Source: an uncultured Planctomycetaceae bacterium (lineage in GTDB: Bacteria > Planctomycetota > Phycisphaerae > SM23-33). From it: a DNA stretch of 64,000 nucleotides. The DNA lies in NCBI GenBank assembly GCA_964531695.1, contig CAZHEH010000001.1:195546-259545 (forward strand), written 5' to 3'. The notes under the pieces are model-generated. The model was given only the letters and a program-made list of their open reading frames with translations. It was not told where the DNA came from and searched no databases. Below are positions 17,537 through 64,000 of this stretch, in pieces (the first letter of the stretch is position 1; each line of letters opens with the position of its first letter). The translations under genes and the position numbers were made by a program.

Positions 17537-18319
17537 TCACGAGTCCTCGGAGCGTCGCCGGGGCACGATCTGCAACTCCCCCAGTGCCTCCAAGGCGGCC
17601 TGTTGCTCGGCCTCTTTCTTGCTGTTACCCCACGCGCTCGAGAAATGCCGCCCGTTGACCGAGACCCCGACCTCGAAGCACTTGCTGTGGTCCGGGCCCT
17701 TCTCGTCCAGCAGGTGGTATTCCGGGGTGCCGCCGAGGTGCTTCTGGGCGTGCTGCTGTAGCAACGACTTGTAGTTACGCTGATGGCTGGATTCCAGCGC
17801 TTGCTCGATCCACCCGCGCATGTGGCACAGCACGAACTCCCGCGCGGCCTCCCAGCCGCCATCGACGTAGATCGCCCCGATGATGGCCTCAAAGACCGCG
17901 GCCGCCACAGAAAGCGGCAACTGCCCGCCCTGTGTCATGCCTTTGCCGGTCTCGAGCAGCTCGCAGATGCCGCTGTCGCGCGCGATTTCCGCGCAGGTGC
18001 GGCGGGACACCACGGACGACTTGATCTTCGTCATATCCCCCTCGAGCAGGTCCGGATGGGCCTTGTAGAGTTCGTCGCACACCGTAACGCCCAGCACGGC
18101 GTCGCCCAGGAACTCCAGCCGCTCGTTGCTTTCCAGACGGGTCGCGGCGACGGATGCGTGCGTCAGGGCCGTTTCCAGCAACTCCGCGTCGCTGAACCTA
18201 TACCCCAGCAGATCCTGGCACCGGTTGACAGTGAGCTCATCCACGTGAACGTCCGCATCGCACAGCCCCTCGCGAGAGCCGCCGCCCGGCCGACACAGCC
18301 GGGAGGCGCCTGTCGCCAA
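17537..18319 (-). CDS. rnc: ribonuclease III
   Basis: RNase III signature 'ERLEFLGDAVLG', catalytic 'EAIIGAIYVDGG', C-terminal dsRBD ('GPDHSKCFEVGVSVNG...AWGNSKKEAEQQAA'). N-terminal roughly 25 aa of the ORF may not be translated. Confidence 0.88.
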   Translation of the reverse strand: MATGASRLCRPGGGSREGLCDADVHVDELTVNRCQDLLGYRFSDAELLETALTHASVAATRLESNERLEFLGDAVLGVTVCDELYKAHPDLLEGDMTKIKSSVVSRRTCAEIARDSGICELLETGKGMTQGGQLPLSVAAAVFEAIIGAIYVDGGWEAAREFVLCHMRGWIEQALESSHQRNYKSLLQQHAQKHLGGTPEYHLLDEKGPDHSKCFEVGVSVNGRHFSSAWGNSKKEAEQQAALEALGELQIVPRRRSEDS

Positions 18320-18509
18320 GGGCCCGGGGCTTCACGACAATGGACGCATTATACCCACCGCTCGCCCGAAGCCAAGGACTACCGGCCCGCACTCAGCGCT
18401 TGCCGCTTGCCAATCCGCGACCCGGCGCATAGGATACGGACCATCCCGCTCAGCGGCCGGCCTGAGATCGCGGACGCTCGGCCGCACGCCGGCCCAACGG
18501 AGCCCGCCG

Positions 18510-20174
18510 ATGGATTGGACATTCGCAACCGTGCCCGACCCGGGCGGATATTACTCACCCATCAAACTCGTGGTGATGTTCGTGCTGGTCGTGCCGTGGT
18601 TCTACGCCGCGGCCTGGGCCAGCCGGGACGCCGGCGCGTTGCGGCACGTGGATCGCACCGTCTGGTCGCTTGTGGTTCTCGCCACGGGCGCCCTCGGGAT
18701 CCTGCTGTGGCTGGTCGTGCCGATGTTCGTCATCGGCCTGGTCCTCTACCTCATCCTCGGCGGCGGCGGCCTCATCACTTACGTAATGGTCCGCAACGGG
18801 CAAGTCGAGGCATCGCAACGGGTACTGACCGGCTCGCATCTGTCCGGCCTGTTCGGCGGCGGAGGCGGCGGGCGTCGCAAGAAGGCGACCCCCGAGGTCG
18901 AGAACAAGGTAAAGGTCTACGGCGCCAACCATCGCGTCGTGCTGCCTCCCGAGCCGCCCACCGCCACGCCGGAGCAGGTCCACGCGTACAACCTCGCACA
19001 GGACCTGCTCTACAAGATTCTCTGGCGCCGCGCCAGCGACGCCGACCTCTCCCCCTCCCAGGGCGGCGTCGGCCGGCTGCTGCTGGTCATCGACGGCGTG
19101 CCGACCCAGGGCGGCGAATGGAGCGTCCGTGACAGCGAGACCGTCATACAGTTTCTTAAGCAGCACGGCGGCATGGACACGGAGGATCGCCGCCGCCCGC
19201 AGCAGGGCCGCATCTCCGCGGAAATCGTCGGCACGGAGCAATCCGACATCGTCCTGGCCTCGAAGGGCACGACCAGCGGGCAGCGGATACAGTTCCGCGT
19301 CGAGCAGGAGACGGCCAAGACGGTCCTCAACGACCTGGGCATGGCCGAGGACCAGCTCGCCCGCGTGCGGCAGATCCTGGCCGAGCCGGGCCTCGTCATC
19401 GTCGCCGGGCCGCCCAAGAGCGGCGTGACCAGCACGCTCTACTCGTTCATGCGGGATTACGACGCCTTCACCAAGCTGCTGATGACGGTGGAGAACAAGC
19501 CGGCCGTCGAGCTGGAGAACATCACCCAGCATACGTACGACGAGGATGCCGAGCGGGCCGAACGGCTCGCCAACGCCCTCCGGCGCGACCCGAACGTCGT
19601 CGGCGTCGACCGCTGCACCGATCCGAAGACCGCCGCCGTCATCGCCGACGCAACCAACGACAAGACCATCATCCTGGGCATGCAGGCGGGCGACACCGTC
19701 ACCGCGCTGGCCAAGTGGGTGAAGATCTGCTCCGATGCCGAAACCGCGATGCGGCACCTGCGTCTGGTCACATGCCAGACTTTGCTTCGCAAGCTCTGCC
19801 CGAGCTGCAAGGAGGCCTACCCCCCGGATCCGGCGATGCTGGCCAAGGCCAACCTGAAGTCCCAGAAGATCGACCGCTTCTACCACCCGCCCAAGCAGCA
19901 GCCCCGTGACGAGAACGGCGCCCCCATCGTCTGCGGAACGTGCCAAGGCAGCGGCTACTTCGGCCGCACAGCCGCCTACGAGATGCTCGAGGTCACCGAG
20001 GACATCCGCAATCTGGTGCTGTCCGGGGCGACCGTCTCGGAGATCAAGGCCGAGTGCCGCAGGGCCGGCATGCTCTACCTTCAAGAGCAGGCCCTGCGGA
20101 AGGTCATCGCCGGCGAGACGAGCATCGCCGAAGTCATCCGCGTCACGCAGGACGCCAAGAAGAAGAAAAAGTAG
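18510..20174 (+). CDS. membrane-anchored GspE/PilB-like protein with degenerate (non-catalytic) ATPase motifs
   Basis: 2-3 N-terminal TM helices. GspE-like P-loop region 'GLVIVAGPPKSGVTSTLYSF' lacks the Walker A Lys (canonical 'GPTGSGKTTTLY'). Walker B/Asp-box region 'DPNVVGVDRCTD' lacks the catalytic Glu, and the His-box is degenerate. The tetracysteine zinc motif 'CPSCK...CGTCQGSGYFGRTAAYEMLE' is conserved. Confidence 0.7.
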   Translation: MDWTFATVPDPGGYYSPIKLVVMFVLVVPWFYAAAWASRDAGALRHVDRTVWSLVVLATGALGILLWLVVPMFVIGLVLYLILGGGGLITYVMVRNGQVEASQRVLTGSHLSGLFGGGGGGRRKKATPEVENKVKVYGANHRVVLPPEPPTATPEQVHAYNLAQDLLYKILWRRASDADLSPSQGGVGRLLLVIDGVPTQGGEWSVRDSETVIQFLKQHGGMDTEDRRRPQQGRISAEIVGTEQSDIVLASKGTTSGQRIQFRVEQETAKTVLNDLGMAEDQLARVRQILAEPGLVIVAGPPKSGVTSTLYSFMRDYDAFTKLLMTVENKPAVELENITQHTYDEDAERAERLANALRRDPNVVGVDRCTDPKTAAVIADATNDKTIILGMQAGDTVTALAKWVKICSDAETAMRHLRLVTCQTLLRKLCPSCKEAYPPDPAMLAKANLKSQKIDRFYHPPKQQPRDENGAPIVCGTCQGSGYFGRTAAYEMLEVTEDIRNLVLSGATVSEIKAECRRAGMLYLQEQALRKVIAGETSIAEVIRVTQDAKKKKK

Positions 20175-58468: not shown

Positions 58469-62788
<4,320 letters not shown>

Positions 62789-63142
62789 CGCTTCGCTCCG
62801 CTACGCGAGAATTCCGAATGAGGAAGCGCGAATGACGAACCAAGCCCGAAGCCCGAACCACGGCGTCCGTCGCCCTTCGCCTGCGCTCGTCATTTTCCGC
62901 CTTGTCCTCGTCACGGCTCCGTCAATCATCCTGCTTGCCGCATCCGCGGAAGATCCTCGAGAAGATCAGATTCAGTTCCGTGGCCTCACGCCAAAGACGC
63001 CTGGCATCCGGGGCAAGCCCCGCCCATCGCATCCGTCGCTGATGCCTCGTCCGTGCCCATTCCAGACTCGCCCCGCCGACACGCCGCCTTCGTTATTCGG
63101 GGTTCGTCATTGTTTCATCATTCGCGCTTCGTCATTCGGCGT

Positions 63143-64000
<858 letters not shown>

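Follow-up and report, generated by a model that had tools for sequence, protein, structure and literature searches.

An rpoB-rpoC spacer closed by inverted heptamer arrays

The 64-kb stretch of DNA analysed here (the window) comes from a member of the Planctomycetota, class Phycisphaerae, and carries the RNA polymerase genes rpoB and rpoC on the minus strand, the C-terminus of RpoB being 87–91% identical to those of Phycisphaerae loci. Between the rpoB stop codon and the rpoC ATG (62788–62786) lies a spacer of 354 nt (62789–63142), the same length as in a preliminary description of the locus. We found that this spacer is enclosed by two complementary arrays of 7-nt units and retains two fragments of a gene for a small four-helix-bundle protein, and we regard it with good confidence as the decayed copy of a cassette of the type known from 23S rRNA as intervening sequences (IVSs).

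The two arrays form an inverted repeat (Table 1) whose 54-nt arms are 80% complementary and separated by 228 nt; among the inverted repeats within 1.5 kb, none in the window is longer. Tandem Repeats Finder (TRF) reported arrays at 63088–63140 and at 62842–62857 (period 7), the latter being the tandem AAGCCCGAAGCCCGAA, and autocorrelation at lags 7 and 14, for which the background is about 0.25, reached 0.48 and 0.54 in the 5' arm and 0.59 and 0.55 in the 3' arm. Variant units stand in mirrored order in both arms. The motif TTCGTCATT has three exact copies in the window, all of them within the spacer, where 0.23 would be expected and none of 100 shuffles reached three; similarly, the 17-mer TTCGTCATTCGCGCTTC with up to three mismatches has four copies against 0.29 expected. 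In the minimum free energy (MFE) fold of the transcript, the spacer is closed by 53 long-range pairs. The duplex between the arms has an energy of -87.5 kcal/mol compared with -51.6 ± 5.3 for shuffles (z = -6.7), whereas the fold of the whole region reaches a z of only -1.9, showing that the signal sits in the arms and not in the spacer at large.

Much of the preliminary description is borne out by these observations. It had reported a perfect 12-nt pair (62823–62834 with 63119–63130) and an adjacent 11-nt pair (62831–62841 with 63101–63111), both of which are exact, as well as the tandem element, a fold of the spacer as one long-range stem-loop and four copies of a motif, which we recovered as the three exact copies of TTCGTCATT plus a fourth in the form CTCGTCATT. 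Its estimate that the 12-bp repeat extends to about 19 bp was too small, given the 54-nt arms. The strand frame was amended, since the transcribed strand is the minus strand; the 136-aa plus-strand open reading frame (ORF), judged non-coding at the time, is antisense to the rpoBC transcript and irrelevant. The G+C content of the spacer is lower than that of its surroundings, as had been noted, although mildly (0.56–0.63 against 0.65–0.70) and not markedly so.

In the spacer, we found no promoter-like site in a sigma-70 scan and, on either strand, no terminator-like site in the form of a GC-rich hairpin with a U-run, and no U-run follows the 3' arm. The Rfam search that had been proposed as a check, run with a permissive E-value over 62300–63700, returned noise: all four hits had E-values of at least 0.6, the best scored 17.7 bits, all were far under their gathering scores and no rRNA match was found in the region.

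Remnants of a four-helix-bundle gene in the window

The RpoC of the window had no exact match among recorded proteins, and relatives were reached by homology. The metagenome contig L081 encodes an RpoC 99% identical to that of the window (for rpoC, 0.083 synonymous substitutions per synonymous site, dS, and 0.003 nonsynonymous substitutions per nonsynonymous site, dN), and its rpoB-rpoC spacer of 641 nt has the same arms. In pairwise alignment, the window spacer corresponds to that of L081 with a single internal stretch of 287 nt removed. The L081 spacer holds a 141-codon reading frame, which, with its stop codon read as Arg, scores 38.7 bits against PF05635 (cut-off 33.8), the Pfam family 23S_rRNA_IVP (23S rRNA-intervening sequence protein), and 50.8 bits against TIGR02436 (cut-off 24), the NCBIfam four helix bundle protein. 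The premature TGA stands at the Arg position of the FDLEER motif conserved in homologs.

What the window keeps of this coding region are the start-proximal codons, before FDLEER, and the last 32 codons, in different frames; of the coding region in homologs, roughly the first 85% is lost to the deletion, and an intact translatable PF05635 gene is absent. The C-terminal remnant is matched in tblastn searches by three intact homologs described below (P0121, P0124 and P0144) with E-values of 1.5e-10 to 4.5e-10, and the 36-aa remnant alone gave no hit to the PF05635 or TIGR02436 hidden Markov models. By these comparisons, the gene is already dead in L081 and has been deleted further in the window. 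In the window's lineage the premature stop came first, which is still the state of L081, and then, in the window, the 287-nt deletion at a microhomology, with the arms remaining.

Table 1. Coordinates of the rpoB-rpoC spacer, its flanking genes and the parts of the decayed cassette in the window
Feature	Position	Strand	Basis and remarks
rpoC	58469..62788	-	1439 aa; ORF list, translation, homologs with RNA polymerase beta' Pfam domains
rpoC leader outside the stem	62789..62808	-	GGAG Shine-Dalgarno-like motif at 62796-62799
3' arm, complementary 7-nt units (TCATTCG / TTCGGGC type)	62809..62862	-	Inverted repeat, TRF, autocorrelation; same in L081
Cassette 3' untranslated stretch, ORF stop to 3' arm	62863..62921	-	Collinear with L081
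Fourth motif copy, CTCGTCATT	62886..62894	+	Inside the cassette 3' untranslated stretch
C-terminal ORF remnant, LAPDARRLWREATELNLIFSRIFRGCGKQDD	62922..63016	-	Last 32 codons, stop 62922-62924; part of listed 36-aa ORF 62922..63032
Deletion junction, CGGGGC microhomology	63017..63022		287 nt of L081 absent; spacer lengths 641 and 354 nt
N-terminal ORF remnant, MGTDEASATDAMGGA	63017..63060	-	ATG 63060, alternative ATG 63027; base-for-base match to L081:2132-2177
5' arm, degenerate tandem 7-nt units (CGAATGA type)	63091..63144	-	Starts within the rpoB stop codon; inverted repeat, TRF, autocorrelation, MFE fold
rpoB 3' end	63143..64000	-	Last 285 codons and TGA stop 63143-63145; gene continues past the window edge

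Two other differences or similarities came up in these searches. The 449-aa ORF at 17783–19132 was considered as a second four-helix-bundle gene and rejected, the Pfam scan having found nothing in it; the weak tblastn match of P0134 to 18161–18481 on the plus strand within this ORF (E 0.002, 26% over 109 aa) is probably due to chance. In addition, the RpoB of L081 carries an in-frame insertion of about 243 aa (L081:835–1602, corresponding to about 63592–63630 of the window, minus strand, inside rpoB), in place of which the window carries some 12 aa of unlike sequence, so that rpoB is polymorphic for a large indel between two genomes with 99%-identical RpoC. A Pfam scan of the insertion found no family, and a GIY-YIG-like motif noticed by eye is a tentative call.

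The same cassette between rpoB and rpoC in other Phycisphaerae

Homologs of the L081 protein number 6305 at E < 1e-5. The closest hits whose contigs were examined, P0121 and P0124 (77% and 75% identical to the L081 protein), occupy the same place, as does P0144 (68%): all three are encoded by intact 123-aa genes between rpoB and rpoC, carry PF05635 and belong to Phycisphaerae whose RpoC is about 80% identical to that of the window. Two further rpoB-rpoC sites, L092 and L093, have genes matching PF05635 at E-values of 2e-11 and 1e-13. The closest solved structure to an intact homolog is PDB 2RLD (E 3.8e-11).

Loci L084 to L093 share one layout, in which the rpoB stop is followed at once by a heptamer array, the gene, the complementary array and rpoC. 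Their inverted repeats are 46–59 nt long with 78–87% complementarity, and the complementary array ends 20–45 nt upstream of the rpoC ATG, ahead of which the sequence GGAGCG is kept in L081, L087 and L091. Unit number varies among orthologous spacers, and the MFE fold of each of seven such spacers has 25–57 long-range pairs. At L088 (2495–2503) and L092 (about 2486–2494), the start codon of the gene is the ATG within the last AATGACG unit of the upstream array; an AATGACG array contains ATG and TGA every 7 nt, and both are thus present in all three frames.

Where intact, the four-helix-bundle gene is under purifying selection, with dN 0.067, dS 0.467 and dN/dS 0.14 between L087 and L091. Ratios for pairs with L088 and for the rpoB C-terminus of the window and L081 were invalid owing to indels or misregister and were discarded.

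The length of the rpoB-rpoC spacer among relatives ranges from 4 to 584 nt, with 41–92 nt in the closest species representatives and 41–118 nt in close relatives lacking the element. The comparison of spacer lengths suggested in the preliminary description gives a divided result, some relatives having a long spacer with the same arms and others a short one. In a neighbour-joining tree of the RpoB C-terminus and the RpoC N-terminus, which is short and weakly resolved, all carriers fall in one clade, together with L001 and L083, which have no cassette, and L082, which has array remnants only. From this distribution we infer one old insertion between rpoB and rpoC followed by decay and loss. The cassette appears to have sat there in an ancestor of this Phycisphaerae group, and it is still intact in several lineages.

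Other rpoB-rpoC spacers in the phylum are also unusual. In L082 (2883–3000; RpoC 82% identical), the 118-nt spacer has AATGACGAATGACGAATCC heptamers followed by six 8-nt units (CGARTYMA), with no gene and no complementary arm, and looks like a later stage in the decay of the rpoB-rpoC cassette. L007 (2865–2994), a Planctomycetaceae metagenome-assembled genome (MAG), has in its 130-nt spacer a gene-less hairpin of inverted arrays of GGGATTA-type heptamers, possibly a "solo" remnant of such a cassette and similar to the arrays of GGGGATT and GGGAATC known from Nostoc and Xanthomonas. The 584-nt spacer of the Planctomycetota MAG L004 (2417–3000) holds another small ORF of 161 aa, with a weak GNAT acetyltransferase match (E 3e-4, just above the cut-off), and L006 has a GC-rich spacer of 500 nt. 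The rpoB-rpoC spacer seems to take insertions repeatedly in Planctomycetota.

The cassette design at other sites and in cyanobacteria

A metagenome scan with an intact protein recovered 80 further loci at 55–79% identity. Scoring 300 nt upstream and 300 nt downstream of the gene, we found that it is flanked by inverted arrays, at a z of at least 5 relative to shuffles, in 61 of 70 distinct metagenome loci. These arrays share the 7-nt periodicity and commonly have 4–8 units, and the unit itself varies (AATGACG, AATGACT, AATTTCT, AAATCCG, AATGACC). The location between rpoB and rpoC is limited to the top metagenome hits; most of the others have co-directional genes on either side (upstream in 21 of 27, downstream in 24 of 27), with DUF1549/DUF1553 and DUF1501, DUF1800 and DUF1501, and the two subunits of a 2-oxoacid:ferredoxin oxidoreductase as recurrent host pairs. 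None of 40 short related loci had an rRNA gene context.

In 3 of 88 cassette loci (L130, L145 and L148), a second four-helix-bundle gene lies within 5 kb, which suggests several copies per genome and local clustering. Contig ends close to the gene were weighed as another sign of multiple copies and set aside, since they carry no information on contigs of 1–2 kb. The upstream arms of L144 and L166 include (TGACCAA)n, which we take to be the reverse complement of TTGGTCA, the heptamer of the cyanobacterial short tandemly repeated repetitive (STRR) element STRR2.

On plasmids of cultured cyanobacteria, heptamer arrays flank six of the seven PF05635 genes inspected, whose products are 30–40% identical. 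The heptamers differ from one cassette to another, and the arms are 97–100% complementary: (CAATTCG)5 is paired with (CGAATTG)5 in Nostoc punctiforme PCC 73102 (97% complementarity), (AATTCAA)n with (TTGAATT)n in N. flagelliforme and Aulosira (100%) and (CAAGTCG)n with (CGACTTG)n in Nostoc ATCC 53789, and Anabaena cylindrica and Nostoc TCL26-01 have (AAAAGTA)n. The heptamer is thus free to vary between cassettes, while the two arms within one cassette match, a pattern that amounts to covariation on the level of the whole cassette. By these comparisons, the cassette design recurs at many other sites and in a second phylum.

On the plasmids of A. cylindrica PCC 7122 (L172:1027–3118) and Nostoc sp. 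TCL26-01 (L175:817–2573), the cassette separates cas2 from cas1 and is encoded on the opposite strand. The four-helix-bundle gene of Pseudanabaena (L178) stands immediately upstream of a cas1 of unusual length (2094 nt), and its flanks carry direct repeats of roughly 35 nt, with no heptamers.

Comparison with rRNA IVSs and other repeat families

The closest described counterpart is the IVS in the 23S rRNA of Coxiella (PMC4990558). It is 428 nt long and holds an ORF of the PF05635 family (S23p) that is in reductive evolution. Its terminal stem of 28 bp is cleaved by RNase III in vitro, the ends having been mapped by rapid amplification of cDNA ends, and the ORF is immediately preceded by three to four tandem heptamers (GACAGAT), strain-variable in number, the first of which is where RNase III cuts (PMC4990558). 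S23p-type IVSs occur also in Leptospira, Brucella and Xanthomonas, as cited in that paper. In common with these elements, the cassette has a sense-oriented, decay-prone PF05635 ORF inside a host transcript, complementary termini forming a stem that encloses the ORF, and tandem heptamers of variable number beside it. The element in the window differs in lying in an mRNA operon spacer, between rpoB and rpoC, and not in a 23S rRNA helix, and in having longer arms (about 54 nt) made of heptamers throughout; RNase III cleavage is known for Coxiella and would be predicted here. In all of its architecture except location, the window element matches the Coxiella IVS, and the likeness to rRNA-flanking RNase III stems drawn in the preliminary description was apt (PMC4990558).

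A second point of comparison is offered by heptamer arrays described without a gene. These include the STRR hairpins of cyanobacteria, such as that of hupS-hupL, which are unexplained (PMC2670836), the 70–75 convergent pairs of GGGAATC arrays in Xanthomonas (PMC4692102) and the TAACTGA repeats of Beggiatoaceae, Cyanobacteria and Bacteroidetes (PMC4679880). Like the cassette arms, they are tandem 7-nt units between co-directional genes, variable in copy number and in some cases inverted pairs capable of forming hairpins; unlike them, they are mostly direct or solo as described in those papers. A term search of PMC4692102 and PMC4679880 found no mention of a four-helix-bundle or S23p gene, and PMC2670836 was covered for repeat terms alone.

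The cassette protein belongs to the same superfamily as Avd, the accessory protein of diversity-generating retroelements (DGRs), an RNA-binding four-helix bundle that assembles into a basic pentameric barrel, and by analogy it is conceivable that the cassette protein binds its own arrays. The surroundings differ from a DGR: the neighbours are rpoB, rpoC and genes for ribosomal proteins, and the flanks examined gave no call of a reverse-transcriptase gene, template and variable repeats not having been searched for. Miniature inverted-repeat transposable elements and the palindromes of repetitive extragenic palindromic sequences and bacterial interspersed mosaic elements are likewise short and intergenic, with inverted termini able to form DNA or RNA hairpins. 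The window-type element differs from them in carrying a conserved ORF and in having tandem heptamers as arms in place of unique terminal repeats; no target-site duplication and no second copy were seen in the 64-kb window, and related genomes show many sites. In Escherichia coli, the rplL-rpoB attenuator and RNase III site provides RNA processing within the same large operon. It lies in another spacer and has no sequence or structural relation to the window element, which is lineage-specific.

Interpretation and alternatives

The cassette that we propose as the source of the window spacer is a promoterless-looking four-helix-bundle gene of about 120 codons (Pfam 23S_rRNA_IVP, TIGR02436) between two inverted 7-nt arrays. 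Its RNA would be transcribed within the rpoBC message, and the arms would form an imperfect helix roughly 50 bp long that begins in the rpoB stop codon and ends some 20 nt ahead of the rpoC ATG. Because this architecture parallels that of the 23S rRNA IVSs, the helix is a likely substrate of RNase III, and a cut would, by the same analogy, excise the cassette RNA and part the rpoB message from that of rpoC. The element in the window is most likely a tolerated relic, and not a device selected to regulate rpoC.

The preliminary description had instead suggested a processing or attenuation element, or a regulator-binding array, controlling rpoC dosage, and had named a small conserved protein-coding gene in the spacer as an observation that would speak against it. 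Such a gene, with PF05635/TIGR02436 membership, fills the spacer in relatives, and the window keeps its deleted remains. Dedicated control of rpoC is further disfavoured by the lack of the element in close relatives with spacers of 41–118 nt, by the lack of terminator- or promoter-like sites and Rfam matches in the spacer region, and by the absence of stem covariation in seven orthologous spacers and of a G:U bias in the arm mismatches. Close relatives without the stem also argue, on present comparisons, against an essential role for the relic.

Several observations weigh against our reading of the spacer as an IVS-type relic, or against parts of it. The cassette is outside any rRNA gene and hence not an IVS in the strict sense, and transcription across the spacer and cleavage by RNase III are both posited. 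In the seven orthologous spacers, 3 of 34 consensus stem pairs compensate, with a covariation term of +0.86; these pairs are nearly invariant, the stem being kept as sequence, and with so little variation the test speaks neither for nor against an RNA helix. Arm mismatches show no enrichment for G:U (48, against 60 for A:C). With no covariation and no G:U bias, selection on a sense-strand RNA helix is therefore unsupported. The spacers of the window and L081 differ at 10 of 360 aligned sites, compared with 5.0% at third codon positions and in other spacers (P = 0.025), and no difference falls in the 87 nt ahead of rpoC (P = 0.011). This low divergence, an estimate from two genomes, is a weak sign that some constraint persists around the rpoC leader, and "pure relic" is perhaps too strong a term. 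A role of the arms at the DNA level, in insertion or excision, is equally possible and is compatible with the RNA reading.

Taken as a full explanation, such a DNA-level role would make the arrays the terminal repeats of a mobile element, serving insertion or excision through a hairpin or cruciform or through recombinase binding, with the RNA stem incidental and the window copy dead and non-autonomous. We consider this possible but rather unlikely. The occurrence of cassettes at many unrelated sites in two phyla, with arms that match within a cassette and differ between cassettes, would be expected of such an element, as would the patchy presence among close relatives, the two copies within 5 kb at three loci and the lack of a G:U bias; moreover, PMC4990558 summarises earlier proposals, by Ralph and McClelland 1993 and Burgin 1990, that IVSs are mobile. 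However, the cassette is without a transposase or recombinase, no target-site duplication is visible at the arm ends, there is a single copy within the 64-kb window, and the examined closest homologs of the rpoBC gene are all found between rpoB and rpoC, which fits vertical descent better than recent hopping.

It is less probable still that the stem was exapted as a cis-regulatory RNA, retained after the death of the gene for rpoBC expression by way of processing, mRNA stabilisation or the decoupling or coupling of rpoC translation. The low spacer divergence and the unchanged last 87 nt before rpoC are in its favour, together with the complementarity of the arms, which is the same in the window and L081 (43 of 54) despite two different ORF breaks, and with the placement of the stem, whose base takes in the rpoB stop codon and whose end lies just before the Shine-Dalgarno-like motif of rpoC. 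Yet the 5' arm changes at the neutral rate (4 of 54 between the window and L081), close relatives manage with stem-less spacers of 41–118 nt, and covariation, terminator-like features and an Rfam family are all missing, in a comparison in which the lineage is represented by two genomes.

Similarly improbable is the view that the heptamers are an array of candidate binding sites, either for the cassette's own four-helix-bundle protein, as a pentamer, or for a host factor, in autoregulation or RNA protection, their complementarity being secondary. Avd, which belongs to the same family, forms a pentameric barrel with a positive charge and binds RNA stem-loops in DGRs (bioRxiv 10.1101/2023.10.23.563531); arrays of the common length would offer 4–8 sites, and heptamers that differ by cassette are as expected under co-evolution with a cognate protein. 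The mirrored order of variant units, however, points to a true palindrome and not to two independent site arrays, and the arms persist in the window and L081 though the protein is gone. Finally, chance or slippage-made simple repeats unrelated to any cassette, for which the over-representation of heptamer tandem repeats in many bacterial genomes and its attribution to polymerase slippage might be invoked (PMC4692102 and PMC4679880), are effectively refuted by motif counts and inverted-repeat scores far beyond shuffles and by the collinearity of the window arrays with the arms of intact cassettes in relatives.

Beyond the decayed copy in the window, we tentatively suggest, as a proposal that may well prove wrong, that Avd/S23p genes with inverted heptamer arrays make up one widespread and undescribed class of selfish cassette. 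Its members would settle in transcribed spacers, for example rpoB-rpoC, DUF1553-DUF1501 and cas2-cas1, as well as in rRNA helices, and hosts would tolerate them through RNase III excision at the array stem. Relics of such cassettes would explain part of the STRR hairpins and of the Xanthomonas GGGAATC pairs, and the protein would have its own arrays as targets, either for spread or for the handling of RNA.

Implications

IVSs with an S23p ORF, and heptamer arrays as unexplained features, are each already known. In a literature search that lacked most subscription journals, we found no prior account of a four-helix-bundle gene with inverted heptamer arrays outside rRNA and, within the same limit, no link of such a cassette to STRR, GGGAATC or TAACTGA repeats. 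The copy in the window is itself a dead relic, and the interest lies in the family that it reveals. The nature of bacterial rRNA IVSs and the role of their S23p ORF have been a puzzle since the early 1990s, and the meaning of the abundant intergenic heptamer repeats of cyanobacteria, Xanthomonas and others is likewise a long-standing one; evidence that a design of array, gene and complementary array occurs commonly beyond rRNA, in two or more phyla and inside essential operons, ties the two together. Tractable organisms for testing it include Nostoc punctiforme PCC 73102, with its plasmid pNPUN02 and the cassette locus NPUN_RS35560, and Anabaena cylindrica PCC 7122, with the cassette locus ANACY_RS28330. 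For genome annotation, the cassette explains rpoB-rpoC spacers of 4 to > 600 nt in Planctomycetota and cautions against taking such hairpins for dedicated regulators.

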